A DNA stretch of 64,000 nt. Source: Vulcanimicrobiota bacterium. Its GTDB lineage: Bacteria; Vulcanimicrobiota; Vulcanimicrobiia; Eremiobacterales; Eremiobacteraceae. Location: assembly GCA_963812135.1 (NCBI GenBank), contig CAWETU010000001.1, positions 2,080,001-2,144,000 of the forward strand, read 5' to 3'. The position numbers and the translations under genes were made by a program. The notes under the pieces were generated by a model, which was given only the letters and a program-made list of their open reading frames with translations, was not told where the DNA came from and made no database searches. Below, in pieces: positions 14,268 through 51,728 of the stretch. The stretch's first letter is position 1; every line of letters begins with the position of its first letter.

Positions 14268-14292
14268 CGGTCGAATAAATTCGACCGCTACA
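14268..14292 (-). repeat. GTAG-type REP-like palindrome, copy 1
   Basis: + strand CGGTCGAATAAATTCGACCGCTACA, directly abutting the ribF stop. Confidence 0.9.
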
Positions 14293-15201
14293 TTACAGAC
14301 GGGCGGCGGCGACGTCGCGTTTCATCTGTTCGATGAGCGCGTCCGCATTTTCGAAGCGCTGCTGTTCGCGTAGGAACCGCCAACCGCTCACGCCGAGCTG
14401 CTCGCCGTAGATGCTCTTGTCGAAATCAAGCACGTGGACCTCGAGCGCTGTCTCATGCCCGCCGAACGTCGGTTTGTCGCCGATGCTCACGACCGACGCA
14501 TAGTCTTGGCCATCGTAGCGCGTGGTGGCTGCGTACACGCCGGCGGGCGGTACGAGCTTCTCCTTGGGGACCTCGAGATTCGCGGTGGGGAAGCCGAGCA
14601 GATGTCCGCGGCCCTCGCCGCCGCGCACGATGCCGTGCACCGTGAACGGCGAGCCGAGCAGCTCATCGGCTTCGTCGAAGCGCCGTTCGTCGATCAGCTC
14701 GCGGATGCGCGAGCTCGAGACGCGCTGGCCGTCGTGCATGGTCAGCGTTTCGACTTCGAACGCGCAGTCCGAGCGCTCCAGCACGCTGCGCGCAAGCGCG
14801 ATGTCGCCGGTGCGCTCTTTGCCGAAACGCCAGTTGCCGCCGACCACGAGCAGACGCGTTCGCAGTTTGGCCAACAGCATGTCCTCGAGGAACGCTCGCG
14901 CACCAACTTGCTGGATGCGCTCGTCGAACGGCAACAAGAAGAGCACGTCGAGACCGCACGCGTCGAGCAGGTTGATCTTCTCCGCCACCGTGGTCAGCGC
15001 TTTGGGGGCTTTGTCCGGGTGTAGATAGGCGAGCGGATGGTGTTCGAACGTCAGGGCGCCCGCCAACATACCCGGCTTACGTCTGCCGCGTAAACGCTCG
15101 AGCACCGCGCGATGGCCGACGTGCACGCCGTCAAAGACGCCGATCGTCAGAAGAAGATCGGCGTCTGCGTGATATGCGTCGAGATCACGGACGATTTGCA
15201 T
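14293..15201 (-). CDS. ribF: Bifunctional riboflavin kinase/FAD synthetase
   Basis: IGVFDGVHVGH, VSSSRIR, GRGHLLGFPTAN, LEVHVLDF; position after truB. Confidence 0.97.
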   Translation of the reverse strand: MQIVRDLDAYHADADLLLTIGVFDGVHVGHRAVLERLRGRRKPGMLAGALTFEHHPLAYLHPDKAPKALTTVAEKINLLDACGLDVLFLLPFDERIQQVGARAFLEDMLLAKLRTRLLVVGGNWRFGKERTGDIALARSVLERSDCAFEVETLTMHDGQRVSSSRIRELIDERRFDEADELLGSPFTVHGIVRGGEGRGHLLGFPTANLEVPKEKLVPPAGVYAATTRYDGQDYASVVSIGDKPTFGGHETALEVHVLDFDKSIYGEQLGVSGWRFLREQQRFENADALIEQMKRDVAAARL

Positions 15202-15227
15202 CGCCGGCTATCGTGGTCTCACTGCGG

Positions 15228-15653
15228 CTAGTGCGATTTTGCGTTCGCACACGCCAACACTAGCGTGCCGCCGTTGTAGGACGAGGTGCCTTGGATGCCG
15301 TTGCTCATCACCTCGCCGCGAACGGTGAGGCTTGGCGAGACGCCGAAGCTCAGCCGGATATCTTTGCCGCTCAAGCCACCCGTGACCGTGATGATCCTGC
15401 CGTAGAGCGGATCGGGCTTGATCGATGTGCTTTTGTATTTGCCGTTGATGATGCCCTCAGCATTGACGGTGATCGTCATGTTGCCGGTCCACGGCGCGCT
15501 GTTCTTAAAGCGCTGCGTCCATTGACAGTTGTATGCTAGGGGAGTACCGACCGGCAACGCGCTCGCGGCGGGTTCGTTAGCGGCTACGGGACCACCGGAC
15601 GAAGCGGCGGCGAACAAGAGCGTTGCGACGAGACCGAAGATTAGATTTCTCAC
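15228..15653 (-). CDS. Secreted hypothetical protein, paralog of 13828..14253
   Basis: Signal peptide, WTGNMTITVNAEG...GKYKSTSIKPDPLY. Confidence 0.75.
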   Translation of the reverse strand: MRNLIFGLVATLLFAAASSGGPVAANEPAASALPVGTPLAYNCQWTQRFKNSAPWTGNMTITVNAEGIINGKYKSTSIKPDPLYGRIITVTGGLSGKDIRLSFGVSPSLTVRGEVMSNGIQGTSSYNGGTLVLACANAKSH

Positions 15654-15665
15654 TGAACATTTCTC

Positions 15666-16568
15666 CTATTGCGTCATGGATGGCGGAAAAACGCGATGCG
15701 GTGACAACGCACCGCCCGCATCGACGCTTCCAAACCCGATCAAGCGATTCCCGTGAAGGACGAGTGTAAGCGTACCCGAGCTGCGCTCGGGTGCTACATC
15801 CGGCTGCGAAGGGACGGGGTTGCCGTTGCGAAAGCGGCGCGCGGCTGCCTCATCGAGTTCGATGCGGGGGCCGCGCAGCACCGAGAGCGGGTCGAGCAGA
15901 CATGCGACCGGCGCCTTGGCGATGTCTTCGGGCAAGCATGCGGAGCCGATGCTGAACGGACCGGCGGCGGTGCGCACGAGTGCGCCCATGTGCGCGGGAA
16001 CGCCAAGCTGCCGACCGATCTCCTCGCAGAGCGAACGCACGTAGAGCCCCGCTTCGCATTCCACAAGCAGTCGCGCACCGCGTTCGCTCTTGGAGAGCAC
16101 GCGCAGCGTGTGCACCTTGGTGGGCCGGGCCGCGCGAGCCACATGCTGGCCGCGACGCGCGCTGACGTAGAGCGCTCGACCTGCGACCTTGACGGCAGAA
16201 TACATCGGCGGGACTTGGTCGAGCGGCCCCACCAGGCCCGCGGCGACCGAGTCGAGCCGAGCGCTCCAATCAGCCGGCAGCTGGCCCGTCTCAAGCACGC
16301 GGCCGCTTTCGTCAGCCGTGTCGGTCGAGGAGCCTAGGTTGAGATCGAAGACGTACTGTTTGTGCGAAGGCGAGATCAGGGGCAGCAACCGCGTCGCGTG
16401 ACCCACCGCAAGCACGAGCACGCCGCATGCTGTTGGATCCAGCGTGCCCCAGTGGCCGACCGGCGTCTTCCCCAACAGGCGCTTCACCCAACCGCCGAAT
16501 GCGGTGGACGTCATGCCGGGCGGCTTGAACGCGTTCAGAAAGCCGAAGTGGGAGAAGGTTTCGGTCAA
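15666..16568 (-). CDS. truB: tRNA pseudouridine(55) synthase
   Basis: KPPGMTS, GHWGTLDP, QVPPMYSAVK, GLYVRSL. Confidence 0.95.
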   Translation of the reverse strand: MTETFSHFGFLNAFKPPGMTSTAFGGWVKRLLGKTPVGHWGTLDPTACGVLVLAVGHATRLLPLISPSHKQYVFDLNLGSSTDTADESGRVLETGQLPADWSARLDSVAAGLVGPLDQVPPMYSAVKVAGRALYVSARRGQHVARAARPTKVHTLRVLSKSERGARLLVECEAGLYVRSLCEEIGRQLGVPAHMGALVRTAAGPFSIGSACLPEDIAKAPVACLLDPLSVLRGPRIELDEAAARRFRNGNPVPSQPDVAPERSSGTLTLVLHGNRLIGFGSVDAGGALSPHRVFPPSMTQ

Positions 16569-17572
16569 CGCACCGCCATCTGAGCGCGAACCGCGCTGAG
16601 CACTTTGGCGAGGGCCGCATCCGCCGGCCCGCTGAGCGGCGCGCCCGCCGCGCGGAAATGTCCGCCGCCACCGAGCGCCTTGGCGATCGCCATGACGTTG
16701 ACGCGCCCGCGCGAGCGCAGGCTCAACCGAAATGTGCCGTCGGGCTGCTCTTTGAGCAACGCCGCCACCTGCGATCGATCGACGGCGCGCAGCGCGCCGA
16801 CCACTTCCTCTAGATCTTCGCTGTCCGCGCCGATGTCAGCCAGCATGGCTTGCGTGACCACTGAGTAGCAGATGCCGTCATCGGTGAGCACCGCAGCATC
16901 CAGCGTGCGCCCGAGGATCTTCTGCGCGGCGAAGGTACGCGTCTGATACAGCTGCTCGGTGATGCGGTCTTTGTCGGCGCCGGCCTCGATGAGCGCGGCT
17001 CCGATGCGCAGCGTATCGGGCGTCGCGTTCGAATACATGAAGCAACCGGTGTCCGACAGGATGGCGCTGAGCAGGCATTCGGCGATATCTTTGGAGACCT
17101 CGACGTGCAGCCCGACGATGAGATGCAGCACGAGCACGCCGGTGGCCGCTTCGTGCTCGCGCACGTAGTTCCAACGGCCGAAGCGCGTATTGGAAAGGTG
17201 GTGGTCGATGTTGACGATGCGCTCGTGCGGCACCCAGGCCAGCGCCTTTCCGGCGCGCGCCTGATCGCTCATGTCGAAGAAGATGAACAGCGCGTCGTCC
17301 GCGACGCCGTCGAAGTTGCGCTGCGTCAAACCCGATTCGGGCAAGAACGTCAAGTTGCGCGGCACGTCGTCATCGAGGAAGTATTTGACGTCTTTGCCGA
17401 GCCGTTTGAGCGCGAGCCCAAGGGCGAAGCCGCTTGCGAGCACGTCGCAGTCGGGGTTCTCGTGGGCGCACATGACGAACTGGCGATGCGAACGCAGGGC
17501 TTCGAGCACGTCGCCGCCCGGCGCCTCGCCAGGTTGCCCGTTACTCTTTGTCGCGGTTGGCTCGAGCTTCAT
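16565..17572 (-). CDS. nrnA: DHH/DHHA1 oligoribonuclease/PAP phosphatase
   Basis: HENPDCD, NIDHH, SDTGCF, SLRSR, GGGGHFRAAG; between rbfA and truB. Confidence 0.9.
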   Translation of the reverse strand: MKLEPTATKSNGQPGEAPGGDVLEALRSHRQFVMCAHENPDCDVLASGFALGLALKRLGKDVKYFLDDDVPRNLTFLPESGLTQRNFDGVADDALFIFFDMSDQARAGKALAWVPHERIVNIDHHLSNTRFGRWNYVREHEAATGVLVLHLIVGLHVEVSKDIAECLLSAILSDTGCFMYSNATPDTLRIGAALIEAGADKDRITEQLYQTRTFAAQKILGRTLDAAVLTDDGICYSVVTQAMLADIGADSEDLEEVVGALRAVDRSQVAALLKEQPDGTFRLSLRSRGRVNVMAIAKALGGGGHFRAAGAPLSGPADAALAKVLSAVRAQMAVR

Positions 17573-17924
17573 CTCGTCGTTGCACCTCGTCGATGATGTT
17601 CGTCAATTTGACGCCTCGCTCGATGGACTCGTCGCGCACGAAGTGGATGGCCGGTGTGCGCCGCATGCCGAGGCGTTTGCCGAGCTCGACGCTCAAGAAG
17701 CCGGCGGCCGATGCGAGGCCCTTCATGCTCTGCGCGACGGCGCGCGGATCTCCCATCGGGCTGGCGAACACCTTCGCGCTGCTCAGATCAGGACTGATCT
17801 TGGCACCGGTGATCGTGACGAACCCCACGCGCGGGTCCTTCAGCTCCTTATGCAGCAACTCGCTCAGCTCGCGCACGATCTCGTGCTCCACCCGCTCAAG
17901 CCGTTTGCTTTTGGCGTCGTTCAA
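17541..17924 (-). CDS. rbfA: Ribosome-binding factor A
   Basis: KDPRVGFVTIT, SPDLSSAKVF, MRRTPAIHFVRDESIERG. Confidence 0.95.
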   Translation of the reverse strand: MNDAKSKRLERVEHEIVRELSELLHKELKDPRVGFVTITGAKISPDLSSAKVFASPMGDPRAVAQSMKGLASAAGFLSVELGKRLGMRRTPAIHFVRDESIERGVKLTNIIDEVQRRDEARANRDKE

Positions 17925-17962
17925 AGTCTCTATCCCACACAGGCGTTCGGTTGTCTAGGGTT

Positions 17963-17987
17963 CGGTCGAATAAATTCGACCGCTACA
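17963..17987 (-). repeat. GTAG-type REP-like palindrome, copy 2
   Basis: Exact consensus, abutting the stop codon at 17988. Confidence 0.9.
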
Positions 17988-18527
17988 TCACTCGGCAGAT
18001 TCTTCTTCTTCGTCTTCGGACTCATCGTCCTCAAGCCACGCGCGCGCCTTGTCGTCCTGCGCGGAGGCGAGCGCCCAGACGCGCACCGCTTCGGCGCGCT
18101 CCTGGTCGCCGCACTCGTTGAGCGTGTCGATGAGTTGCGAGCACGCGGCCGCCCACTGTTCGTCGGGCTCGTCCACGCCGAGCACGACCGCCGCCGCAAG
18201 ATGCGCGATCGCTGGCGGCCAGCGCTCGAGATTGGCAAGCGCTGCGCCAAGGTCGCCGTGCAGGCCCGCCGCGCTCGGATGGCGGTCCAGCCCTTGGCGC
18301 AACAGGTGTTCCTCGCGTTCGTCGTTGCCGAGCTCGAGACACAACGAGGCCATCAGCTGGACGCCGTCGGGGCCGAGGTCGCCGGATTCTTCGAACGGCT
18401 CGAGCAGCTGCAGCGCGCGGCGCAGCTCGGCGCGTTGCTCGGGCGACCACGGGTCGTCCGCATCGCCGTGGGCGACGATCACGTTGAAGTAGATCTCGTG
18501 CGCCTGCTCGACCACGTCGTTGTCCAT
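17988..18527 (-). CDS. Acidic TPR-like helical protein
   Basis: LHGDLGAALANLERWPPAIAHLAAAV TPR-like pattern, Glu/Asp tail; TAATG overlap with infB. Confidence 0.7.
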   Translation of the reverse strand: MDNDVVEQAHEIYFNVIVAHGDADDPWSPEQRAELRRALQLLEPFEESGDLGPDGVQLMASLCLELGNDEREEHLLRQGLDRHPSAAGLHGDLGAALANLERWPPAIAHLAAAVVLGVDEPDEQWAAACSQLIDTLNECGDQERAEAVRVWALASAQDDKARAWLEDDESEDEEEESAE

Positions 18528-21103
18528 TACGCCGGCGCGGCCGCCACCTCTTCGGTCGTGAACGCTTCGATCACATCGCCTTCTTTGATGTCGTTGTAGT
18601 TCTCGATCGACAGGCCGAGCTCGTAGCCCTCGGCGACCTCGCGGACGTCATCCTTGAAGCGCTTGAGCGACGCGAGCTTGCCTTCGTACACGACGACGCT
18701 GTCGCGCAGCACGCGCACGCCGGAGTCGCGCGTGATCTTGCCCGACTTGACGTAGGCGCCGGCGATCGTGCCGACCTTGCTGACTTTGAAGAGCTTGCGC
18801 ACTTCGACTTGACCGAGCACGACCTCGCGCGTCTGCGGCTTGAGCATGCCTGCGATGGCCGCCTTGACGTCGTCGATGACGTTGTAAATGACGTCGTACA
18901 ACCGGATATCGACGCCTTCCGATTCGGCTTTGCGCGATATCGTGGCGTCGGGCCGGATGTTGAAGCCGATGATGATCGCGTTGGACGCGCTGGCCAGCAT
19001 GACGTCGGACTCGTTGATGCCGCCGACGCCGGTGTGGATGACGCGCGTGCGCACCTCATCGTTCGCGAGGCCGTCAAGCTGCGACTTGAGCGCCTCGACC
19101 GAGCCTTGCGCATCGGTCTTGATGATGAGGTTGAGGTCCTTGATGCCGCCTTCTTTGGCTTGCGCCAAGAAGCCGTCGAGCGTCACGGTGCGCTTGGCGG
19201 TGGCCATGCGCTGCTCGCGCTTGCGCTGCGAACGTTTAGCGGCGAGCTCACGCGCGTCGCGTTCGTCCGAAACGACTTCCATAATATCGCCTGCGGCGGG
19301 CACATCGGACAAGCCCATGATCTCGGCCGGGATGGCCGGTCCCGCGCGCTTGATGGCTTCGAGCTTGTCGTCGAACAGCGCGCGCACGCGACCCCAGGTG
19401 GATCCGACGACGACGATGTCGCCGACGCGCAACGTGCCGTTCTTGACGAGCACGGTGGCGACCGGACCACGCGCCTTGTCGAGGCGCGCTTCGATGATCA
19501 CGCCTTGGGCGCGGCGGCTCTTGTTCGCCTTGAGGTCCAACAGGTCGGCGTTGAGCAACACCATCTCGAGCAGTTCGTCGATGCCGGTCTTCTGCTTGGC
19601 CGAAACGGGTATGAATTGCGTCGTTCCGCCATATTCTTCCGGCGCGAGCCCAAGGTCCGACAGCTGTTGCTTGACGCGATCTGGATTCGCATCGGGGCGG
19701 TCCATCTTATTGATGGCGACGACGATCGGCACGCCCGCCGCTTTCGCGTGGTTCATCGCTTCGATGGTCTGCGGCATGACGCCGTCGTCGGCGGCGACCA
19801 CAAGGATCGCGACGTCGGTGACTTTGGCGCCGCGCGCGCGCATCTCGGTGAACGCTTCGTGGCCGGGCGTGTCGATGAACGTGACTTTGCGGTCGCCCGT
19901 CTCAACCGTGTAGGCGCCGATGCGCTGCGTGATGCCGCCCGCCTCGCCCGCCGCCACCTTCGTGGAACGGATGGCGTCGAGCAGCGACGTCTTGCCGTGG
20001 TCAACGTGGCCGAGCACGGTGACGACCGGCGGCCGCGTGGTGAGCGAACCCGGCGGATCCGCCTCGACGACGATCTCCGGCGCGGCTTCTTCGCCGACTT
20101 CCTTGACGATCGTGTTGAAGCCGAAGCGGCGCGCCACTTGGCTGGCGACGTCGGGCGTGATGTGCTGATTGATGGTCGCCATCGTGCCCATGCGGATGAG
20201 CTGCGCGATGACTTGGCCCGCCGGCGTCTCCATCGCGGCGGCGAGCTGCTGCACGGTGATGAGGTCGGGAATCGGCAGATCCTTGAGGATCTCCGGTTCG
20301 GTGACCGTCGCGCCGACTTGCGCCGCGCGCGATCTCGGCTGCTGTTTCTTGAGCAGCGACTCGCGTTCGCGCTCTTTGCGGTCGCGCTCGAGCTCTTCGC
20401 GTGACTTCTTGCGCCCGCCACTCGGCGGGGCGCTCGGCATCGGGCCGGATTGCACCATGCCGCGGCCTGGACCGCCGGGGCCACCAGGGCGGCCGGCGCC
20501 TGGACCACCGGGGCGCGAGAATCCGGGGCGCGGACCAACACCGCGACCACCGAGCGGCTGCGGACCTGGACGAAGGTTGCCGCCGAGCGGACGTTGCGGC
20601 GGACGAGGCGGCGCAACTGCGCCCGCTTGCGCTGCGGGCCGTAGCGTCGGAATCGGCGCGGTTGGATCGGCCGATGCGGCCGGTATGACTTTGGGCGCCG
20701 GCGCAGGACGAGGCGCTGGGCGCGGCTGCTTTTGCGCAGGCGGCACTACGCGCAAGCGCACGACCGGCTCTTCGGGAATGACGGGGGCGGATGGCTGAGC
20801 GGGTGCTGGCGTCACGGCAGCGGTGGATTGCGCCGGCGGCGCGACAGGCGGCGGCGCAACTGCTTGTGCAGCGGCGGCGCCATTGCCCGTTGCGGGGGCG
20901 CTCTTCTTGGGGGCGATCTTGACGCGCTTTGCCTCTTCGGCGAGATTGCCCGTGAGCACGCCCTTGACGATCCGCGCGCGGTGCTCGTCGATCAGGCTCA
21001 TGTGCGTTGAGGCGGAAATGCCGACCTTGCTCAGGAGCGCGATCGTCTCCTGACTTGAGAGGTTGAGCTCTTTTGCGAGCTCATGTACTCGAACTCCAGC
21101 CAT
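18527..21103 (-). CDS. infB: Translation initiation factor IF-2
   Basis: [10 protein letters not shown]-domain, [32 protein letters not shown]. Confidence 0.98.
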
Positions 21104-21124
21104 GTGTCCGGCCGCCACAGCGGC

Positions 21125-21451
21125 CTACTCGTTTCCTTTCATCGTATCGGGCCAGGCGGTGGGCGGGATGTCCGCCGTCGCCAGGCCTTTGTATTTCTTG
21201 TTCTTCTTCACGCGCTCGACGCACTGCGGCGAGCATAGGTACGCGCCCCTGCCGTCGCTGCGCGCCTCCGGATCGGCGCTCCAGCGCCCATCCGCGACCC
21301 GCACGAAGCGCAGCAGATGCCGTTTTTCGCGACGCGTGCGGCATCCAACGCATTGCCGGATCGGTACGCGTTCGGATTCCGCGAGATCATTCGGTTGCGC
21401 CAGTCTTTTCGGCGTCGTCGGCGGCATCCTCCGTAGCCTCGGGTTGGGCAT
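21125..21451 (-). CDS. ylxR: YlxR/DUF448 (RnpM) RNA-binding protein; start codon uncertain
   Basis: PIRQCVGCR, LLRFVR, GRGAYLC; between nusA and infB. Confidence 0.85.
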   Translation of the reverse strand: MPNPRLRRMPPTTPKRLAQPNDLAESERVPIRQCVGCRTRREKRHLLRFVRVADGRWSADPEARSDGRGAYLCSPQCVERVKKNKKYKGLATADIPPTAWPDTMKGNE

Positions 21452-22742: not shown

Positions 22743-22765
22743 GACGGTGTGCTTTAGTCCCCTAG

Positions 22766-22797: not shown

Positions 22798-22815
22798 CAC
22801 GGAGAATACACTCGT

Positions 22816-42286: not shown

Positions 42287-42289
42287 CTC

Positions 42290-43384
42290 TTAGGGTTTGT
42301 AGGTTACGCGGTAGATCGTGCCGTTCGTGTCGCTGCTGATGTAGAGCGAACCGTCGTTGCCGACCACAACACCTACTGGACGGCCGCTCACGCTTTGGTC
42401 GTCGTGCAGCCAGCCGGTGACGAAATCTTCCGCGCGCTGCGGGCGGCCATTTTCGAAGAACACGACGACGACTTTGTAACCGACCTTCGATGAGCGGTTC
42501 CATGAGCCGTGATCGGCGACGAAGAGCGCGCCGCGATAGCGCGCTGGGAATTGCGTGCCATGGTAGAACGCGATCTGCAACGGCGCGTCGTGCGCTTGAA
42601 GGTTCAGCTCCGACGGATGCGTGCCCGCGCACTTCGCCGGGTCCTTGTACTCTGGGTTCGGTACACGATTGCCGTTGCCGGCGTAACAATACGGCCAACC
42701 ATAGTTCGCGCCGGCGACGATCCGATCAACTTCGTCCGGCGGCACATCGTCGCCGATACCGTCGCGGCCATTGATGACCGCCCATAAGCGGCCGGTGTCA
42801 TCGAAGGCGAGACCAGATGCATTGCGCACGCCAGACGCGTAGATGGCGCCTTTGCCGCCGTTCGCATCGTAACGCAGCACAGTCGCGAAGCGTGGATCCG
42901 TTTCGATGCAGACATTGCAATCCGAACCGCTCGAGACGAAAATCGAGCCGTCCGCTGCCAGCGCGATCGCGCGATTGTGGTGGTCGCCGCCTTGGGGCAT
43001 ATCGGTGAACAGCGTCTGGTGCGGGGTGCCGTCCGCGGGGGGATAGTGCAGCTTGGTGACGCCCGACCATGCTGCGACGTAGAGATCGTCGCCACGGAAT
43101 GCGAGGCCGTGCGCGATCGGCAAGCCGGTGATGACGACTTTGGGGTCCGCATCGGGCGGTGCGCCTGGCGTCAGCGCGACAACGCGATCCCTCGATATCT
43201 GCGAGACGAGCACGTCGCCGTTCGGGGCGACGGCCAAGAAGCGCGCACCCGGCACTCGAGTTGAAACGACGGAAATGGCAAAGCCTTGAGGCACGTGGAG
43301 TTGCGTCGTGTCGGCGGCGCGCGCCGAGCAGCCGGTCAGCGCGAGCATCGCAAGGAGGGCTACGAGGCGGTGGTCATGGGCCAT
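42290..43384 (-). CDS. PQQ-dependent sugar/sorbosone dehydrogenase family lipoprotein
   Basis: LTGC lipobox, GVRNASGL, NGRDGIGDDVPPDE, HGSWNR, GRPVGV. Confidence 0.9.
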   Translation of the reverse strand: MAHDHRLVALLAMLALTGCSARAADTTQLHVPQGFAISVVSTRVPGARFLAVAPNGDVLVSQISRDRVVALTPGAPPDADPKVVITGLPIAHGLAFRGDDLYVAAWSGVTKLHYPPADGTPHQTLFTDMPQGGDHHNRAIALAADGSIFVSSGSDCNVCIETDPRFATVLRYDANGGKGAIYASGVRNASGLAFDDTGRLWAVINGRDGIGDDVPPDEVDRIVAGANYGWPYCYAGNGNRVPNPEYKDPAKCAGTHPSELNLQAHDAPLQIAFYHGTQFPARYRGALFVADHGSWNRSSKVGYKVVVVFFENGRPQRAEDFVTGWLHDDQSVSGRPVGVVVGNDGSLYISSDTNGTIYRVTYKP

Positions 43385-44570
43385 AGCTGACGCGATAGAT
43401 ATACCCGTTCGAATCATCGCTTATGTAGAGCGATCCGTCCGGAGCGACGGCGAGCCCGACCGGCCTGCCCGTCACGCTGTTGCTCGGCGTCAGCCAACCG
43501 GCGACGAAATCAGTGGGCGCGCTCGGCATGCCGGCGGAAAAAGGCACGAACACGACCTTGTAGCCGGTCGGCGGATTGCGATCCCACGAACCATGAAACG
43601 CGACGAATGCGCCGCCTCTATACTGCGCCGGGAACATTGAACCGTTGTAGAACACGATGCCGAGCGGCGCTGAGTGCGCCTGCAGTGGCTGTGTGTTTCG
43701 TATCTGGCCTGCGCAGCTCGGACTAGCCACCGGCGAGTCCGGGTTCGGCTGGCGATTCCCGACCAGATCGGGGTAGCACGTCGGCCACCCGTAGTTCCCG
43801 TTGGCAATGACTTTGTCGAATTCGTCCGTCGGCAGATTGGTGTGGTCGGGGGTCAGATCGTCGCGCTGGTTGACGACCATCCACAGCTGCCCTGACTGAT
43901 CGAACGCGAGCCCGCTGCCGTTGCGCACGCCGGTCGCGTAGATCTGCGCGTTTTGGCCGTTGAGGTCCATCGACATGATCGTCGCGTACTTTGGATCGCT
44001 TTCGCTGCAGATGTTGCAGTCGCTGCCGGACGACAGGTAGACCGTGCCGTTCGACGCGACCGCGAGCGAGCGGTTGTTGTGATCGTTGTTCGGTTGCGGG
44101 AGCCCGCTGTACAGCGTTTGCACCGTTGTATTGGTCGGATAATTGCGGATGACGCTCAGGCCGGTTTGCGTGCCGATGTAGAGGTCGCTGCCGTTGAAGG
44201 CCAGCCCGTGCGGTCGTGTGAGGCCGCTCGCAATGACGTTAGGAGCGGCGTTCACCGCCGAGCCGAGCGGGATCGCGACGATTGCGCCGTTGTTGGGCTC
44301 GGACACGATGAGGTCGCCGTTTGGCGCAAAGGCCATGAATCGCGCATTCGAGACATTGTTCGAAACGAGGGCGATCTTAAAACCGGTCACCAAGCACAGG
44401 TTCATCGAGGGCGTTGGCGTGGCGCTTTGCGAGCAGTTCTGCGGCCGGCTCGTCGGGCCTGGCATCGGATTGGCGCCGGGGTTAGTCGGACCAGGCATCC
44501 CAGATGAGGTGCACGCCGCGATAGATGAAGCGCAGATGAGCGCGACAGCGGATGAGAACCGTTTCATCAT
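43374..44570 (-). CDS. PQQ-dependent sugar/sorbosone dehydrogenase family lipoprotein (tandem paralog)
   Basis: IAAC lipobox, GVRNGSGL, HSAPLG, HGSWDR, GRPVGL. Confidence 0.9.
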   Translation of the reverse strand: MMKRFSSAVALICASSIAACTSSGMPGPTNPGANPMPGPTSRPQNCSQSATPTPSMNLCLVTGFKIALVSNNVSNARFMAFAPNGDLIVSEPNNGAIVAIPLGSAVNAAPNVIASGLTRPHGLAFNGSDLYIGTQTGLSVIRNYPTNTTVQTLYSGLPQPNNDHNNRSLAVASNGTVYLSSGSDCNICSESDPKYATIMSMDLNGQNAQIYATGVRNGSGLAFDQSGQLWMVVNQRDDLTPDHTNLPTDEFDKVIANGNYGWPTCYPDLVGNRQPNPDSPVASPSCAGQIRNTQPLQAHSAPLGIVFYNGSMFPAQYRGGAFVAFHGSWDRNPPTGYKVVFVPFSAGMPSAPTDFVAGWLTPSNSVTGRPVGLAVAPDGSLYISDDSNGYIYRVSYGP

Positions 44571-44706
44571 CGTCTTACAGCCGTTTCATAGGGGTCTTAG
44601 GCGCGCCTCATGTGCGTGGGAACTCTCGCGGTTATGCTTGCTTGTAGTCGGGGATCGCTCCGACAGCTTCGATCCCGGCATTTCGCCAAGAAAGGGTTTC
44701 TCAACC

Positions 44707-45795
44707 ATGCGAACGCGTATCATTTTCGCAATAGTGGCGGCCATCACCCTTGCCGGTTGCGCCGGCGGCGGTTCGGGCAGCCCGTTCCCCAACCAGCCCG
44801 GCGGCGGCAGCTCCTCTTCGATGACTCCGCAAGAAGCCGCGCAGACGGGCGCCGACACGGCAATGGCCGAGGTCGAGCGCGGCAGTCTCGATAGCACGCT
44901 CTTCTCAGGTTCATCGGGCGTGCTGTTGTCGACAGCCAGAGCTCCGATGCCGCAGACCAGCGGCACGTGCGTCAACGGCGTGATCAAGACCGTGACGATC
45001 ATCAGCCCGACCGAGACGCAATACGACGTGCAGGCCTTCTTCGATCTGGCTTGCACGCAACTGCGTCGCGATTCGTTCGCCGATGTCCAGATCCCGAACC
45101 CCTCGACGGAGAACATCGCGCGCACGATCAAGAACTACAACAACTCCGGCTTGCTGCTCTCGACGCGCAGCGCGAACTACTCGGTCACCGGCAGCCCCGG
45201 CAACTTCTCGGCGGTCGTGACCAGCGCGCTGACGGTCGGCACAGAGACCTCGCCGCAGGAGCAGTCCGGCCATCAGCTGACGGTCGCGCCGCAGAACGCC
45301 AACACGTGGACGATCGCCGGCAACGGCGCACGCATCGAAAACGTCGGCGTGCCGAGCGTCAACGAGTCGTTCGGCGAAGCGGCGTTGCTGTCGAACGTCA
45401 CTGCGACGGTCGACGCGTCGAGCAACGTCACGTTCGCGGGCACGCGCAACAAGACGTTCTACAAAGGCGCGCTCGGCAGCCTGAGCATTCCGTCGAGTCC
45501 GCCGTTCGGCGTCTCGGGGGGCACGCAGACCGGCACGGGTTCGCTCACCGGTTCCGTCGTGTTCGACTCGAACGACCAGCTCGTGAGCGTCGCGCTCAAC
45601 GGCACGCTCGCCAATGGCGACAGCATCGTGGTGACGAGCTCAGGCTCGGGCGCGACGATCTCGATCAACGGCACGATCACCGCTCCGGGCGGCGCGCAGC
45701 TGGCCACCTTCTCGGTCGACCGGTTCGGCGACGGCCTCATCACCTACGCAAACGGCTCGCAAGCCATCATCATGGACTGGCACGTGGTCAAGTAG
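44707..45795 (+). CDS. Hypothetical Ser/Thr/Gly-rich beta lipoprotein
   Basis: LAGC lipobox, GGGSG linker, beta-strand-rich. Confidence 0.75.
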   Translation: MRTRIIFAIVAAITLAGCAGGGSGSPFPNQPGGGSSSSMTPQEAAQTGADTAMAEVERGSLDSTLFSGSSGVLLSTARAPMPQTSGTCVNGVIKTVTIISPTETQYDVQAFFDLACTQLRRDSFADVQIPNPSTENIARTIKNYNNSGLLLSTRSANYSVTGSPGNFSAVVTSALTVGTETSPQEQSGHQLTVAPQNANTWTIAGNGARIENVGVPSVNESFGEAALLSNVTATVDASSNVTFAGTRNKTFYKGALGSLSIPSSPPFGVSGGTQTGTGSLTGSVVFDSNDQLVSVALNGTLANGDSIVVTSSGSGATISINGTITAPGGAQLATFSVDRFGDGLITYANGSQAIIMDWHVVK

Positions 45796-45797
45796 AT

Positions 45798-45822
45798 CGG
45801 TCGAATAAATTCGACCGCTACA
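45798..45822 (-). repeat. REP-like palindrome, copy 9
   Basis: Exact consensus 2 bp after the stop at 45795. Confidence 0.9.
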
Positions 45823-45840
45823 ACACCGAGTACAAAGGAA

Positions 45841-45868
45841 AAGGGACGGGGCCATGTACCCGTCCCTT
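45841..45868. terminator. Probable bidirectional terminator hairpin
   Basis: AAGGGACGGG-8 nt-CCCGTCCCTT between convergent genes, A-rich left flank. Confidence 0.6.
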
Positions 45869-45897
45869 CGCCTTTCCCGGAGGAGGGGGTTGGACGT

Positions 45898-46245
45898 CTA
45901 GTCGATGTTCGAACGGCGCTCGGCCTCGGCCGCGCCGCGCATCGGATTGTTGGGGCAACGCCGGCACGCGTACGTCGCGATCGTGCGGAATGCCGACTTG
46001 GTGATTTCACGGCGCGCCGTCAGACGGAAGCGCGTGTAGGCGTCGTCGAACGCGCTCTCGACGCCGTTGCCGGTGAACAGATCCATCGTGAAATGTTCAC
46101 AGCATGCCGCGCACATCGTATCCGTCTTGAACAGCGGGCAGCGCATGCAGCCATCGCCGTGATCGCCGAATTCGTTCCAGGAAGTGGACTGTGGGCTCAA
46201 CGGCCCTTCGAGCAAGCTATGAAGCAGCTCGTCGACGTTGGTCAT
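45898..46245 (-). CDS. Cys-rich hypothetical protein
   Basis: CMRC, CAACCEH, CRRCP motifs in 115 aa. Confidence 0.6.
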   Translation of the reverse strand: MTNVDELLHSLLEGPLSPQSTSWNEFGDHGDGCMRCPLFKTDTMCAACCEHFTMDLFTGNGVESAFDDAYTRFRLTARREITKSAFRTIATYACRRCPNNPMRGAAEAERRSNID

Positions 46246-46299
46246 GCCCGTATGACTAGGCCAGCAGTAGATTTGTTTCGCTCCCGGAAGCCCCTAAAT

Positions 46300-46449
46300 A
46301 TGGACGAACACACGTTCACGGTGGGGCAGCTCGCCGGCCCCGGGACCTACCGCTGCTTGGCCTGCGAAGCGGAGTTCACTGAGTACGCCCTCTCCTTTGA
46401 GATCGAGCCCTGCCAGTGCGGCGGGACCACGTTTGCGCGGGTGGACTGA
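46300..46449 (+). CDS. Small zinc-ribbon protein (49 aa)
   Basis: GQLAGPGTYRCLAC...IEPCQCGGTTF; TGATG overlap with the next gene. Confidence 0.65.
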   Translation: MDEHTFTVGQLAGPGTYRCLACEAEFTEYALSFEIEPCQCGGTTFARVD

Positions 46450-47195
46450 TGCCGTTTGCGCTGCCGCTGATCTTGCTCCACGCCTGGCCGCTCGATGCCA
46501 GGATGTGGCGCTCCCAGGTCGCCGCATTGCGGCCCGAAGGTGTGATCCATGCGCTCGATCTTCCAGGATTTGGAAATGAGCTCGATCTCGATGGCCCGGC
46601 TTCGCTCGACTTTTGGGCCGAGCACTTGTCGGAAGAGCTGCGGGGCATGGGCGTGTCGCGCGCCGTATTCGCGGGCTGCTCGATGGGCGGCTACACCGCG
46701 CTCGCGCTTTTGCGCGTCGACCCTTCTTTAGTGGCGGGCCTTGCGCTCGTCAACAGCCGCGCGGCGGCCGACACGCCGGAACAGGCGGCCAATCGCGCGG
46801 CGACGATCGAGCGGATCGGGCGCGAGGGGACGGATTTCGTGGTCGAGAGCAGCGCGCTTGCGTTGAGCCCGCACACGCGCGAGACCAAACCCGATGTGGT
46901 CGCGGCGCTGCGGGTCATGGCGAGCGATGCCTCGCCCGAAGCGCTGATCAATGGATATCGCGCGATCGGCGCGCGGCCGGACATGCGCGACGCATTGGTC
47001 AGCCTTGAGCTGCCGATGGCGGTCATCGCCGGCGAGGACGATCCAGTGATTCCGTTGACAGAGGCGCGCGGACTTGCGGCTTCAATACCGCACGCGACTT
47101 TCACGCAGGTCGCGCAGGCCGGGCACATCGCGGCGATGGAAAACCCCGATGTCGTGACGGCTGCGTTGCGCGAGTTTTGGAAATCGGTCGAATAA
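46449..47195 (+). CDS. Alpha/beta fold hydrolase
   Basis: LLHAWP, DLPGFG, GCSMGG, GEDD, AGHIAAMENP. Confidence 0.92.
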   Translation: MPFALPLILLHAWPLDARMWRSQVAALRPEGVIHALDLPGFGNELDLDGPASLDFWAEHLSEELRGMGVSRAVFAGCSMGGYTALALLRVDPSLVAGLALVNSRAAADTPEQAANRAATIERIGREGTDFVVESSALALSPHTRETKPDVVAALRVMASDASPEALINGYRAIGARPDMRDALVSLELPMAVIAGEDDPVIPLTEARGLAASIPHATFTQVAQAGHIAAMENPDVVTAALREFWKSVE

Positions 47196-47209
47196 ATTCA
47201 ACCGCTACA
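47185..47209 (-). repeat. REP-like palindrome, copy 10; supplies the hydrolase TAA stop
   Basis: CGGTCGAATAAATTCAACCGCTACA; TAA at 47193-47195. Confidence 0.85.
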
Positions 47210-47219
47210 CACAAACGTT

Positions 47220-47726
47220 TTAGCGGCGTTTGCCGTCTTTGATCACCCAGGGCATGTCGGCCTCGCACGAGTACTTGCGCCAGCCTGGAAGGTCCTTGCC
47301 GCCGAACTTGCCGAGCATCCTGACCGCGCTTGAAGCCTTGTCCTTGCCGAAGCCAGGAAGTGCGAGCAGGCGCTCGTAGACCTCGTCCGCGCTCTTCGCC
47401 TTCTCCCACACCCGGGCGCCTTTGCCGCCATAGTCTGTCGCGATCGTGGCGCACAGCGCTCGTACGCGCTTGGCCATCATGCCGGGGAAGCGATGGAGCG
47501 CCGGGGTCTCGCGGAACACACGATCGAGGCGTGCCGGCGGCGTCGCTGCGATTTTCTTCGCATCCAGTGTGCCCAGCCGGCGGCGCAAATCATACGGACC
47601 CATCATCGCCTTTTCGGTCCTGACCTGTTGCTCAAGGCACAGACCGATGAGCAGCGCGGTGCCGTCCTTGGCGAGCAGCGCATTGGCGGCTTCGTTGAGC
47701 GTAAACGGGTACGAGGATTTTGCCAT
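47220..47726 (-). CDS. HhH-GPD-type base excision repair family protein
   Basis: ALLIGLCLEQQV..EKA..GP, PALHRFPGMMAKRV, LALPGFGKDKA. Confidence 0.85.
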   Translation of the reverse strand: MAKSSYPFTLNEAANALLAKDGTALLIGLCLEQQVRTEKAMMGPYDLRRRLGTLDAKKIAATPPARLDRVFRETPALHRFPGMMAKRVRALCATIATDYGGKGARVWEKAKSADEVYERLLALPGFGKDKASSAVRMLGKFGGKDLPGWRKYSCEADMPWVIKDGKRR

Positions 47727-47748
47727 GGCGCGGCGCACTTTGTCCGCG

Positions 47749-49488
47749 ATGATGCGATTTCCCGTCATGACAATCGTGTTTGTGGCTTGCGCGCTACTCT
47801 TGACTTCTGCAGGGCGGGCGGCGCAAACGGATGAGTTCACCCAGCTCGTCAACCGTTACCTCGCCGAATCGGAAGCGCGCGACCCGCTCTTCTCGGACAG
47901 CATCGGCATCCACACGTACGACGACCAACTACCGGACCTATCGCCCACCGCCCAACAGGCGACGTATCAGTGGGAGACGCAGTGGCGCGTCCGCTTTGCT
48001 GCGCTCTCCGCGCAAAGTCTTTCGCTCGGCGAGCAGGCGGACCAGCGCGCGGTCCTGGACGGCATCGATGCGGATCTGCTCGAGTCTACGACGATCCGCC
48101 CGTATGCCACCGATCCTTCAATATATACAGGGGCGATCGGCGACGCGGTCTACCAGCTGACGAGCCGCAGCTACGCGCCTTTGGACGCGCGGGTCCGCGC
48201 CGTCGCGACGCGCATCAAGTACATCCCCGACATCGTGCGCGCTGCAGAGGCCTCGCTCACCCACCCGCCGCGGGTCGCCGCGGAATTGGCGGTCCAGCAG
48301 AACCAAGGCAACATCGATCTGTACGAGCACGATCTGCCCGCGCTTGCGAAAACGACGTCGAAGGAAACGCAAGCGATCTTAGCGCGCACGCTGCCTGCTG
48401 CGCTTGCGAGCCTCAAAGATCTTCAAGCATTCCTCGCGGGACCGCTGCTCGCGCAGGCAAACGGCAACGCGCGTGTTGGCGCCGCGGTGTTCGACGCAGA
48501 GCTGCGCTTGGTGGACGGAACGGATACGCCGCGAGAAGTGCTCGTTGCACGAGCGCGCGCGAACTTCGAGCGCACGCGCGAAGAGATGCTGCGGCTTGCG
48601 CGCCAGCTGTATCGTCCGCTATTGCACGCGGACGCGCCGGTCGAAGCGCGGACGCAAGACATGCTCATCGACTCCGTCGTCGGCCCAGTCTTGAACGAGC
48701 TGGCGAAGCGCCATCCGGAGCGTGACAAGGTGTTCGTCACAGCGAAGGCCGATGTCGCCGGCCTCGAAGCGTTCCTCACCCGCGATCCTGTCGTGCCGTT
48801 GCCCGTCCCCAGCACGTTGACCGTCGCGCCGACGCCGCAGTTCCTGGCCGGCATCGCCGGCGCTGGCCTGGACTCCCCGGGCCCCTTCACGCCGCTGGCG
48901 GGTTCCTACTATTATATCGATGAGATCCCAGCGTCGTGGAGCGCTGCGCGCGTCGCCTCGTACTTGCGCGAGAACAACAACTATGAGATGCAGATCCTCT
49001 CGCTCCATGAGGCCGTACCTGGGCACTACGTGCAGTACCGATACAACGCGCTCACGCCGTCGCTGGTGCGCCGCGTGTGGCCCAACGGATCGTTCGTCGA
49101 AGGCTGGGCCGTCTACACCGAAGGCATGATGCTCGACGCAGGCTACGGCGGCGGCGACCCGGCACTACGCCTGTTCCAATTGAAGTGGCGCTTGCGCGAA
49201 TACGCCAACGCGATCATCGATGCAGAGTATCACGCCGGCTCGATGACGCAGGCGCAGTGCATGAGCTTGCTTGCCGAGGCTTTTCAGGAACCAAGCGAAG
49301 CGCAGACCAAGTGGCACCGCTTGGAGCTGTCGCACGATCAGCTCTCGAGTTATTTCGTGGGGCTTGACGCGATCGAACAAGCTCGCAACTCCCATCCTGT
49401 GAGCGCAGCCGCCTTCAATAAGAAGCTGCTCGACATGGGGTCTGTCGAACCGCGTTTTATTGGAACCCTAATCGATTCGACGCAATAG
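47749..49488 (+). CDS. DUF885 family exported metallopeptidase-like protein
   Basis: Signal peptide, HEAVPGHYVQ, FVEGWAVYTE, QLSSYFVG. Confidence 0.92.
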   Translation: MMRFPVMTIVFVACALLLTSAGRAAQTDEFTQLVNRYLAESEARDPLFSDSIGIHTYDDQLPDLSPTAQQATYQWETQWRVRFAALSAQSLSLGEQADQRAVLDGIDADLLESTTIRPYATDPSIYTGAIGDAVYQLTSRSYAPLDARVRAVATRIKYIPDIVRAAEASLTHPPRVAAELAVQQNQGNIDLYEHDLPALAKTTSKETQAILARTLPAALASLKDLQAFLAGPLLAQANGNARVGAAVFDAELRLVDGTDTPREVLVARARANFERTREEMLRLARQLYRPLLHADAPVEARTQDMLIDSVVGPVLNELAKRHPERDKVFVTAKADVAGLEAFLTRDPVVPLPVPSTLTVAPTPQFLAGIAGAGLDSPGPFTPLAGSYYYIDEIPASWSAARVASYLRENNNYEMQILSLHEAVPGHYVQYRYNALTPSLVRRVWPNGSFVEGWAVYTEGMMLDAGYGGGDPALRLFQLKWRLREYANAIIDAEYHAGSMTQAQCMSLLAEAFQEPSEAQTKWHRLELSHDQLSSYFVGLDAIEQARNSHPVSAAAFNKKLLDMGSVEPRFIGTLIDSTQ

Positions 49489-49579
49489 CACTGACCGAGG
49501 GAACAGGTGCGAGCGGACCTAAGTACGTGCCACCGCTTAGGGTGCTTTTGTCGAAGCGGCTACGGAGGCTCTTGGCATC

Positions 49580-50269
49580 ATGCTCTTCCCTTTGCTCATC
49601 AGCGCGCTCTCGTTGACGTCGCTGGACGTCGCGGCGGCACCCAATCCTGGGCCGCTGCGCCAAGTCACGTATAAAGTCTCCGTCGCGAACAAGACGTATA
49701 GCGGCGGCGAACACTACAATGGCTTTAGCTCGGCATCGACCGTGACGAGCGACAACGGCACGGTGACCGTGGCGATCATGGCCGTGCAAGGAGATGCGCT
49801 CGGCATCGACGTGACCGAGCTGATGAACAAGACGGGCCGGCCCGCCACCTACACGGGCTCAGTGTCTCCCAACGGGGTGATCTTTCCGCCTGAGACGATC
49901 CAAGACGTGACACGCGAATTGCTGCAATACTTCGCGCCGGTGATCCCGGCCGACAAGCTCGACGTCGGATCGACCTGGGACGTGAATGAGAATCAGGGCG
50001 GCGTCGATATCCGTACGAACTACAAGGTGACCAAGATCGATGGCGCGCTGCTCACGGTCGCCGAGCATCAAACGGTGAAGATCGCGGCGCAGAACGCGAC
50101 GTTCGTGACGGATGGGACAATCGTGCTCAAGCCTTCGCTGCTCGTGCCAGTCAGCGGCGACATCCACCGAACGATCTCGCGCATGACCGTCTCGGGCGAC
50201 ACGAAAACCGAGGCCTCGCTTCATTTCGAGCGGGTGTCGGACTCGAAGGACGTGCCTACGCCGAACTAG
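49580..50269 (+). CDS. Secreted hypothetical protein (tandem paralog 1 of 3)
   Basis: Signal peptide; LRQVTY, DNGTVTVAIM, RELLQYF, GSTW, GTIVLKPSLLVPVSG. Confidence 0.8.
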   Translation: MLFPLLISALSLTSLDVAAAPNPGPLRQVTYKVSVANKTYSGGEHYNGFSSASTVTSDNGTVTVAIMAVQGDALGIDVTELMNKTGRPATYTGSVSPNGVIFPPETIQDVTRELLQYFAPVIPADKLDVGSTWDVNENQGGVDIRTNYKVTKIDGALLTVAEHQTVKIAAQNATFVTDGTIVLKPSLLVPVSGDIHRTISRMTVSGDTKTEASLHFERVSDSKDVPTPN

Positions 50270-50288
50270 TCAGCCAAAGGAGGTAGTG

Positions 50289-51017
50289 ATGTTCGCGACC
50301 CTCCTGATCGCAGCGACGCTGCTCGCTTCGAGCACGCCGACACCCGCGGCGCCTGCCCCCAGCCCTAGCGCGGTCCAGACGGTTCCCCAAGCCGGGCCTA
50401 TGCGCGTAGTGACCTACAACGTCACGTGGTCCACGAACATCGTGCACGGCGAGATGGGGTACGGCGGGCTCAACCAAGTGCAATCCAACCACGCGGATCG
50501 CGGCACCGTCAGCGTCGCCGTCATGGCGATCCAGGATGAAAACCTCGGCGTTGAGGTGACTGAAACGATGCAACGCGGCGGTGGACCCTTCAAGTTCAAG
50601 GGCGTCATCAGCCCCACCGGCATCGTCACGTTTCCCGCGGAATCGATCTCGGAGGTCTCGCGCGAGCTGTTGCGCTACTTCGCAACCGAGCTCATCCCGC
50701 CCAACGACACCGAAATCGGGTCAACGTGGCAGACCGTATACGACCTCCACGTCGTAAAGGTTCAAAACCAATATAAAGTGATCAAGATCGATGGGGACCT
50801 GCTCACACTTCAGTCGACGCAACAGGCGAAGTTCAACACGTTCAGCGGCACGACGACCAGCGAAGGGACGATCGTGCTCAAACCGTCGATCCTCGCACCG
50901 GTCAGCGGCACGGTCCGCAAGATCATCGATGAGTTCATCTCGGGCGACCAGCAGCGCGAGGAGTACAACCTGCAGTTCGACCGCGTCAGCGATAGCCTTG
51001 ACTCCAAACCGAAGTGA
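50289..51017 (+). CDS. Secreted hypothetical protein (tandem paralog 2 of 3)
   Basis: RBS AAGGAGG; MRVVTY, DRGTVSVAVM, RELLRYF, GSTW, GTIVLKPSILAPVSG. Confidence 0.8.
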   Translation: MFATLLIAATLLASSTPTPAAPAPSPSAVQTVPQAGPMRVVTYNVTWSTNIVHGEMGYGGLNQVQSNHADRGTVSVAVMAIQDENLGVEVTETMQRGGGPFKFKGVISPTGIVTFPAESISEVSRELLRYFATELIPPNDTEIGSTWQTVYDLHVVKVQNQYKVIKIDGDLLTLQSTQQAKFNTFSGTTTSEGTIVLKPSILAPVSGTVRKIIDEFISGDQQREEYNLQFDRVSDSLDSKPK

Positions 51018-51020
51018 CGC

Positions 51021-51695
51021 GTGATCGCGCTGTTCGTGTCCGCGCTCGCGTGGATCTTCGTCGCTGCATCCCCCGCCGGGGCGCAGAGCGACGCGCCGAT
51101 CCGTTCGGTCGTCTATAAAGTCTCGATCCAGCAGCGCAACGAGGCGCACATCGAGCGCTACAATTCGATCGACCGAGGCATCGCGACGTTCACCGACGAC
51201 GGCACGGTGGACGTCGACATCATGGTCAAGACCGAGACCGTGCTCGGCGTGCGGGTGACCGAAGCGATGCGTTCGCGCGGCTATCCGGCAAGTTTCACCG
51301 GCAACGTCGGACCGGATGACGGCGTGCATTTCCCGGACGGCTCGATCAACGAAGTCTCATACAATCTCTTGCGCTTTTTCGGCGTGCGCTTTGCCGCCGA
51401 TCAGAGCCTCGCCGTCGGGTCGGTGTGGACGACGCCGACCGGCATCCAGTACACGGTGAAATCGTCGGACGGGCGGCGCGTCACGCTGGATGTCGTGCAA
51501 CACGTCAAGGTCGCCAACACGGTTTCGAGCGTCGTCGTCTACGGCATGGTGGTGTACGATCCTGGGCTGCTCGTGCCGATCAGCGGCGACCTGACGCAGC
51601 ACCGCATCGAGCTGCACCCCGAAGGTGCGCTCGAGACGTACCAAGAGATGCAGTTCGTCCTTCAGTCGGACAGCTTCGATGCGCCGAAGCAATAA
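51021..51695 (+). CDS. Secreted hypothetical protein (tandem paralog 3 of 3)
   Basis: IRSVVY, DDGTVDVDIM, NLLRFF, GSVW, GMVVYDPGLLVPISG. Confidence 0.8.
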   Translation: MIALFVSALAWIFVAASPAGAQSDAPIRSVVYKVSIQQRNEAHIERYNSIDRGIATFTDDGTVDVDIMVKTETVLGVRVTEAMRSRGYPASFTGNVGPDDGVHFPDGSINEVSYNLLRFFGVRFAADQSLAVGSVWTTPTGIQYTVKSSDGRRVTLDVVQHVKVANTVSSVVVYGMVVYDPGLLVPISGDLTQHRIELHPEGALETYQEMQFVLQSDSFDAPKQ

Positions 51696-51703
51696 GAAAA
51701 AAG

Positions 51704-51728
51704 CGGTCGAATAAATCCGACCGCTACA
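51704..51728 (-). repeat. REP-like palindrome, copy 11
   Basis: CGGTCGAATAAATCCGACCGCTACA between convergent genes. Confidence 0.88.

Follow-up and report, generated by a model that had tools for sequence, protein, structure and literature searches.

Solitary GTAG-type REP elements lie mostly on one strand across the terminus half of a bacterial chromosome: a possible record of replication fork direction

Why should a short hairpin-forming repeat always lie on the same strand, whatever the direction of the genes beside it? This question is raised by a stretch of 64,000 nucleotides (the window; positions 2,080,001-2,144,000 of contig C1 in the 2.79-Mb assembly G000) from a bacterium that we infer to be an Eremiobacterota soil organism. 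The window had been described as harboring 11 copies of a 25-bp repetitive extragenic palindrome (REP), all with a GTAG foot on the minus strand. Every one of the 11 matches the 25-mer on that strand within three mismatches (six exactly, two with one mismatch and three with three), whereas 100 shuffled windows gave no match, and the description is thus borne out, except that the foot at 28016 is GGAG. No inverted partner exists in the window, the flanking open reading frames (ORFs) are tandem, convergent or divergent as claimed, and the additional copies that had been overlooked (one at 27185, two half copies and two of a second family, B) are all minus too. The minus strand also encodes nusA and infB; since the window belongs to the left arm, where the fork heads to lower coordinates, the GTAG strand is the lagging-strand template here, as had been supposed. 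The coin-flip probability of about 0.001 attached to this uniformity is correct as arithmetic, but the window sits in a domain where 93% of the loci are minus, and a window from the origin half of the same chromosome would look random.

Across the G000 genome, 198 copies of family A (the 25-mer) and 41 of family B were found, against one and none for the reversed-motif controls. After removal of ten A and two B copies (haplotig or overlap duplicates, or copies with a foot on both sides), 227 copies at 200 loci remained, of which 176 loci are single and 24 are clusters. Because only four of these clusters are inverted (20 are direct repeats), the inverted doublet is not the unit in G000, although a few copies carry a foot on both sides, and the element is mostly solitary genome-wide as it had seemed to be in the window. 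The chromosome itself has a conventional layout. The end of contig C1 overlaps the start of C5 at the single rRNA operon (2.37 Mb), both C1/C5 junctions are spanned by contigs of the congeners G005 and G001, segments of C1 recur as strain variants in contigs C2, C3, C4 and C6, and the circularized chromosome comprises 2,733,665 bases (completeness of G000, 98%). A canonical oriC region (gyrB-recF-dnaN-dnaA and rnpA-yidC-mnmE-gidA-gidB-parA-parB) is located at 300-318 kb, and the sole tyrosine recombinase, Xer (L165), lies at the terminus, at 1,526.7-1,527.6 kb. Octamer skew and gene orientation change sign at ~0.3 and 1.52-1.54 Mb; the most replichore-skewed octamers are GAAGAAG-type words (85% for AGAAGAAG), candidates for a motif like Chi or the FtsK-orienting polar sequences (KOPS), whose skew persists against gene direction and flips at the terminus. 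A motif search did not pin down DnaA boxes, parS or dif. With one tyrosine recombinase in the genome, the Xer system is likely to be a single-recombinase one. SMC and ParB, of interest because SMC arm alignment might conceivably randomize the origin half, occur in four of four congeners; the SMC hinge match of G001 (C2, 348.2-348.6 kb) is divided between two frames, probably through an assembly indel error. The congeners G005, G006 and G001 are collinear with G000 at all 60 sampled regions, and gene order across two genera, with G046 and G047 of the related, RAYT-bearing genus g9 included (RAYT, REP-associated tyrosine transposase), is collinear almost everywhere it was sampled, even though REPs number in the hundreds.

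On this chromosome, 145 of the 196 single-orientation loci (families A and B together) are on the minus strand, and the excess is confined to one half. The best fit with two boundaries delimits a domain of 1.34 Mb (1,037.7-2,373.6 kb), in which 102 of 110 loci are minus, vs 43 of 86 outside (likelihood ratio, 24.1; maximum in 200 permutations, 9.1). With only eight plus-strand copies, the domain runs on one strand straight across Xer at 1.53 Mb. Its left boundary is loose (~0.97-1.07 Mb), its right boundary is at the rRNA operon, and both lie about a quarter of the genome from oriC. The origin half has no blocks of like orientation (46 runs vs 40.5 expected, P = 0.91). A replichore model is barely better than the null in G000, and a step model beats cosine and gradient models (Akaike information criterion, AIC, 184.6 vs 187.9-201 for gradients). 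By sector, the family A foot is on the leading strand in 18/31 copies in the proximal right, 2/25 in the distal right, 66/72 in the distal left and 20/34 in the proximal left; because of the disparity between the two distal values, the distal right arm is the anomaly. Neither of two features expected of a repeat polarized by replication is therefore seen in G000: orientation does not switch at the terminus, and it is not unequal throughout a replichore, the origin half being about equal. Family B leans likewise (16/17 minus at 1.53-2.37 Mb, but only 3/6 at 0.96-1.53 Mb), and three loop subtypes repeat the domain. The polarity is independent of transcription, inasmuch as 17 of the 19 domain copies between two plus-strand genes (by our own gene calls) are minus. 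An octamer scan for other motifs sharing the domain returned only REP-derived words and poly-C tracts; the latter (C1 1,345,333 and 2,312,274-2,312,465, all plus strand) may be sequencing artefacts.

The situation in genus g9 is different, in that its singlet REPs follow the replichores. For all relatives, REP counts are based on the matches listed and on sampled regions. G046, which is collinear with G000, has three RAYTs and three REP families and was sampled in 40 regions of 20 kb that avoid both the dif zone and the 0.2 Mb left of dnaA, with 13 mixed loci left out. Of the remaining 138 single-orientation loci, 104 have the foot on the leading strand and hence on the lagging-strand template (P = 2e-9), with similar shares on the left (55/71) and right (49/67) arms, and the bias is also seen where the neighboring genes are convergent or divergent (37/48) or both head-on to the fork (11/17). 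It is weaker near the origin (32/49, vs 72/89 elsewhere). On both large contigs of G046, 136 of the 197 exact matches listed are on the leading strand, with the orientation switch somewhat left of dnaA; the small contig C2, which leans the opposite way, was excluded from this count. Near dif, in a zone chosen post hoc, the matches listed depart from the rule (9/26, vs 127/171 elsewhere). In G047, the contig spanning Xer (C3) has 46 of 64 on the leading strand, with a switch near the Xer gene, and another contig 18 of 24 among the matches listed. The original prediction that the spread of the REP is polarized by replication, with the foot on the lagging-strand template and a switch between replichores, thus holds for genus g9 but not for G000 itself, where the two replichores show no mirror symmetry. 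Taken as a whole, fork-linked insertion is probable for this REP family.

Two congeners repeat the G000 domain. Among the matches listed, G005 has 47/47 and 11/11 minus in the two distal sectors (58/58) and 17/31 near the origin, and G006, of which 20 of 90 contigs were mapped, has 30/32 and 8/11 (38/43) and 18/29 near the origin, whereas G001 has 14/28 and 10/13 distally and 27/53 near the origin. Family C of G001 is unbiased and forms nine inverted clusters. Near Xer, in G001 (C6, 11-247 kb) and in G046 (C1, 0-440 kb), REP orientation looks reversed with respect to oriC forks; family A of G001 is minus just before Xer and plus in nine of ten just after. Comparison of orthologous sites, which had been suggested as a check, revealed presence and absence of copies: of 130 mapped congener copies (11 were not mappable), 70 correspond to an empty site in G000 and 60 to a filled one, with matching orientation in 56. 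Since the compared regions were chosen around known copies, these counts are not genome-wide rates. About half of the sites are common to species of 75-80% identity, and in several of 12 alignments the empty site differs by a clean gap of 26-36 nt, with gain and loss not polarized. Copies absent from G000 obey the domain in G005 (14/15) and G006 (10/11), but not in G001 (5/9). REP families also replace each other at a site, family B of G000 (C1 1,841,104 and 1,944,445) being family A in the same orientation in G005 or G006. Contigs of the sequencing runs contained no usable filled or empty allele, and joints between REP copies in them are repeat artefacts.

The stem pairs of family A are retained in 172-183 of 188 copies, depending on the position, and compensated changes mostly mark subtypes (39 at one pair). 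A GTAG-type tetranucleotide is present 5' of the hairpin, and the copies are mainly extragenic, most of them 50 nt or less from a stop by our own gene calls. The window contains no RAYT gene, as had been noted, and none was found in the entire G000 genome by PF01797, NF047646 (E-values up to 1), a family alignment or tblastn; the best tblastn match was rejected, as it lies inside an unrelated oxidase-like ORF. RAYTs were likewise not found in G005 or G006; they exist in G001 and in 16 of 30 other genomes of the bacterial family that were searched (one unpublished genome being left out of the count), and three of three tested exceed the NCBIfam REP_Tyr_transpos cut-off. These genes are bracketed by inward-facing REPs and flanked by tandem arrays. 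At five loci (L004, L006, L010, L019 and L022) the foot and outer stem are those of family A, with a stem one bp longer; loci with such family-A-like REPs belong to genus g4 and to metagenomes, and B-like REPs flank other RAYTs (L293, L297 and L305). In genus g4, related REPs number in the hundreds on short contigs, face either way and include inverted doublets. Family A had no match in viral contigs, and its high copy number is restricted to four of seven genomes of one genus. With near-identical REPs flanking RAYT genes in relatives, the element is almost certainly a REP of the RAYT (TnpA-REP) kind, and in G000 it constitutes an orphan family of short perfect-stem GTAG/GGAG REPs that has spread as singlets and short direct tandems.

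How could a RAYT have produced one polarized half? RAYTs bind and cut only the foot-bearing strand, as single-stranded DNA (ssDNA; PMC8266576); excision out of the lagging-strand template was put forward as a possibility for bacterial interspersed mosaic elements (BIMEs; PMC3333891), and use of that template has been demonstrated for IS200/IS605 (PMC3971601, PMC6006769). We propose that a RAYT would insert the REP on a single-stranded lagging-strand template; because only the foot strand is recognized as ssDNA, the strand of a singlet would report which strand was single-stranded. For normal forks from oriC, as in genus g9, this would be the lagging-strand template. The distal right arm (~1.0-1.53 Mb) of the G000/G005/G006 clade has the orientation of the left arm and, if the rule holds for family A, would mostly have been crossed by leftward forks during the spread of the REPs. 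Since no fork trap is known in this species, the left fork might overrun dif; alternatively, forks might restart in the terminus region; forks are reported to run past the terminus where no fork trap exists (PMC6549158), and those born in the terminus can ascend the arms (PMC10331603). The outcome would be one 1.34-Mb single-strand domain; near the origin, the bias is weak. We give a little under an even chance to leftward fork traffic as the cause of the domain, so that the orientation of the REPs may have preserved, like a fossil, a trace of unusual fork traffic. It is more doubtful, though conceivable, that singlet REP orientation is a legible, lineage-specific record of fork direction and that this 1.3-Mb terminus half was habitually copied one way through dif; equally tentative is the idea that such one-way copying would hold despite the canonical layout of oriC, parAB, SMC, FtsK and Xer, in a domain bounded by the rRNA operon and its antipode.

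Several observations weigh against leftward forks. The GC skew at four-fold sites is +0.020 +/- 0.003 in the domain vs +0.002 in the origin half; the plus strand is G-rich, which by the textbook sign means rightward, not leftward, forks. Thus, the skew marks the same half as unusual, though its sign disagrees. It is strongest (+0.089) at 2.2-2.37 Mb, beside the rRNA operon, with a weak reversal at 1.68-1.85 Mb, and the anomaly beside the operon is seen in G000 and G005, not in G001. The sign is uncalibrated, because G046 shows no skew (a small sample hinted at an excess of G on the leading strand, but one five-fold larger did not) and haplotig substitutions are too few. A left fork of ~2.0 Mb vs a right fork of 0.7 Mb is extreme, nothing that could block the right fork was seen at 955-1055 kb, and gene orientation, GAAGAAG polarity, Xer and FtsK all put the terminus at ~1.53 Mb. 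G001, which is collinear and has a RAYT, lacks replichore bias (leading strand: family A 47/94, family C 53/98 among the matches listed), and fork polarity is therefore not universal in the bacterial family. Moreover, G046 and G047 represent one genus and are not independent; nor are the three polarized congeners independent replicates, since about half of their sites are common. Finally, an exact family A flank, as expected of a cognate RAYT, was found at none of 198 RAYT loci.

Among the alternatives, the best surviving, although unlikely, is local copying that preserves the strand: a RAYT nick followed by copying primed from the 3'-OH would let one orientation drift to dominance in the terminus half while forks run normally. 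Direct repeats make up 20 of the 24 multi-copy clusters, tandem arrays stand beside RAYT genes, the pattern differs between lineages, and rolling-circle-like amplification has been proposed (PMC3333891). However, such copying should leave blocks of like orientation, and the origin half lacks them; the step beats the gradients; family B, of another sequence, leans the same way at 1.53-2.37 Mb (if not at 0.96-1.53 Mb); and the REPs of genus g9 follow replichores.

Less probable still is another one-way source of ssDNA, either R-loop-primed synthesis leftward from the rRNA operon or conjugative transfer starting close to 2.37 Mb. The operon, whose minus-strand transcription proceeds into the domain, coincides with the right boundary (best, 2,373.6 kb), and the anomalous GC skew of G000 and G005 peaks beside it. 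Yet a gradient decaying from 2.37 Mb fits worse than the step, an RNase H family gene occurs in seven of seven genomes, and the sign of the skew is again opposite to that expected of a displaced minus strand. As for conjugation, the genus has no coupling protein (only short P-loop matches, the best in an FtsK-sized ORF near the terminus), the genome has no integrase beyond its sole tyrosine recombinase, and no relaxase was recognized among 127 proteins scanned at 2.16-2.37 Mb, the region to which that search was limited.

Of slightly lower probability again is selection, by which copies of the minority orientation would be purged from the terminus half, as inverted pairs seed inversions that break polarity. 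The rarity of plus-strand copies in the domain, the stronger GAAGAAG polarity in the terminus half than at 0-0.96 Mb and the gene order conserved across two genera are in line with purging; the density of loci is not, as it is no lower in the domain (110 loci in 1.34 Mb) than outside (86 loci in 1.40 Mb). C5 combines strong GAAGAAG polarity with mixed REPs, many inverted copies are tolerated in G001 and genus g4, and direct pairs would themselves seed deletions.

That orientation tracks transcription, through a role as terminator or in mRNA or through the non-template strand serving as substrate, is very improbable. A co-oriented gene ends beside a copy in 118 cases, in 27 of which the foot supplies its TAG as the stop codon, and in the origin half 28 of the 46 copies flanked by tandem genes are sense, but the antisense 17 of 19 described above largely refute this for the domain, and the bias of G046 persists in convergent, divergent and head-on contexts. 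An architectural motif like Chi or KOPS, read by a host translocase or nuclease and raised as an alternative in the original prediction, would agree with the high copy number, the conserved hairpin and the sharing of about half of the sites at 75-80% identity; it is nevertheless unsupported and scarcely credible, because a flip at dif is typical of such motifs and is seen for GAAGAAG but not for the REP, which also lacks polarity near the origin, is abundant in only four of seven genomes of one genus and is swapped with family B at one site. The least credible idea of all is that the assembly is faulty or conceals an inverted distal right arm: although the genome was assembled from a metagenome and includes strain haplotigs and probable indel errors, G005, G006, G001, G046 and G047 are collinear at sampled points, contigs span dif and both C1/C5 junctions, independent run contigs match pieces of the window without differences, and an inversion would also have flipped the genes and GAAGAAG.

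Three further candidates were rejected. At 1,000.9 kb, the RAYT of G001 is close to the left boundary; this was treated as chance, because G000 has a clean empty site there, other RAYTs are scattered over the whole chromosome and the cognate family in G001 does not converge on the gene. Nested inversions about the origin are contradicted by the lack of blocks, the lack of a strand age difference in the origin half and the collinearity of the genomes. A second origin at the antipode fits both boundaries and part of the skew, but between 1.7 and 2.37 Mb it predicts plus-strand copies, and 66 of the 72 there are minus.

Table 1. REP copies in the 64-kb window (coordinates are those of the window)
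Position	Strand	Feature	Context
1..64000	-	Whole window (C1 2.08-2.144 Mb)	Inside the polarized domain, C1 ~1.04-2.37 Mb
14268..14292	-	Family A, exact; hairpin -8.9 kcal/mol as ssDNA, z -3.5	Directly 3' of ribF stop
15774..15797	-	Family B (second GTAG hairpin family)	
17963..17987	-	Family A, exact	3' of ORF downstream of infB
25034..25057	-	Family B, one mismatch	
26208..26232	-	Family A, 3 mismatches	G005 site also filled, same orientation
27185..27209	-	Family A, GGAG foot, 4 mismatches	Site common to G005
28016..28040	-	Family A, GGAG foot, 3 mismatches	
28889..28913	-	Family A, exact	Convergent ORFs
29345..29369	-	Family A, compensated stem changes	Divergent ORFs; site common to G005
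35572..35596	-	Family A, exact	Convergent RND permease and AAC(6')-like acetyltransferase ORF
42223..42285	-	Family A, exact, then two decayed half copies in direct tandem (~42254-42285)	
45798..45822	-	Family A, exact	Site common to G006 and G001
47185..47209	-	Family A, one mismatch	
51704..51728	-	Family A, one mismatch	Convergent ORFs

The copies in the window are collected in Table 1. The ORF at 35599-36165, separated by a REP from the convergent RND permease gene, resembles AAC(6') aminoglycoside acetyltransferases, below the family cut-offs. Three tandem paralogous ORFs of ~230 aa at 49580-51695, spaced by 700-750 nt, correspond to repeat families D6, D7 and D13; the one that was scanned had no NCBIfam match, and an Rfam scan of the window gave none. 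Elsewhere on C1, the four-fold-site skew at 2.05-2.37 Mb opposes the replichore and, in accessory as well as core genes, increases as the rRNA operon is approached, a feature that G005 shares and G001 and G046 lack. Directly downstream of the operon, ~2.25-2.37 Mb (L179-L182, L167-L169) is occupied by lower-GC small accessory genes, including Uma2 nucleases, BrnT-type toxin-antitoxin genes, glyoxalases, WYL and CHAT/TPR genes, which are largely missing in G001, with no integrase nearby.

The closest known relatives of the element are the GTAG REPs of group 3 RAYTs in Stenotrophomonas maltophilia and Marinomonas (PMC8266576), which likewise have a 5' GTAG foot, a 9-bp perfect stem and a tiny loop, and share the extragenic, strand-specific design and, in the relatives of G000, the inward-facing copies around the RAYT. 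Differing from these systems, G000 has no RAYT and the GGAG foot is common in its congeners; chromosome-scale strand polarity is not mentioned for group 3 REPs in the accessible part of that paper. BIMEs and doublet-forming REPs (REPINs) are made of the same building block by the same transposase family (PMC3337134, PMC3116915, PMC3333891), and REPs of genus g4 and family C of G001 form such inverted doublets, whereas the loci of G000 are mostly single (176/200), with clusters mostly direct (20/24), and its singlets, conserved with compensated stems, are not obvious decay products; singleton-rich REP families are known (PMC3733652). With IS200/IS605, which use Y1 HUH chemistry on ssDNA (PMC3971601, PMC6006769), genus g9 REPs share the fork-following orientation, but the REPs are non-autonomous units (25 bp in family A), and in the G000 clade the orientation does not flip at the terminus and is lost near the origin. 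Passage through a terminus without a fork trap and terminus over-replication (PMC6549158, PMC10331603) show, for engineered or mutant strains, that forks can run counter to their normal replichore, whereas the G000 case would be a lasting lineage trait, judged from repeat orientation alone. The nearest precedent is in Pseudomonas fluorescens SBW25, in which tandem REP arrays are oppositely oriented on the two sides of the chromosome (PMC3116915).

In short, the element itself is of a known kind, whereas no report of replichore polarity of singlet REPs or of repeat polarity crossing the terminus was found in the literature accessible to us, from which subscription journals are missing, and earlier reports are possible. 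What we have is a sound description, a supported fork rule in the sister genus and an unexplained half-chromosome domain. Because inverted doublets hide any strand preference, it is the singlets that reveal one, and genus g9 provides supporting evidence on the chromosome scale for the lagging-strand template as the landing site of RAYT-type REPs, an idea that had been proposed and for which no earlier report was found in that literature; this bears on how REPs spread in vivo. Read by the fork rule, the half-chromosome domain of the G000 clade ignores the clade's own terminus, which would point either to unusual replication or to a second rule of repeat spread. If the rule is true, REPs would serve as markers of fork direction for uncultured bacteria that have no usable GC skew.

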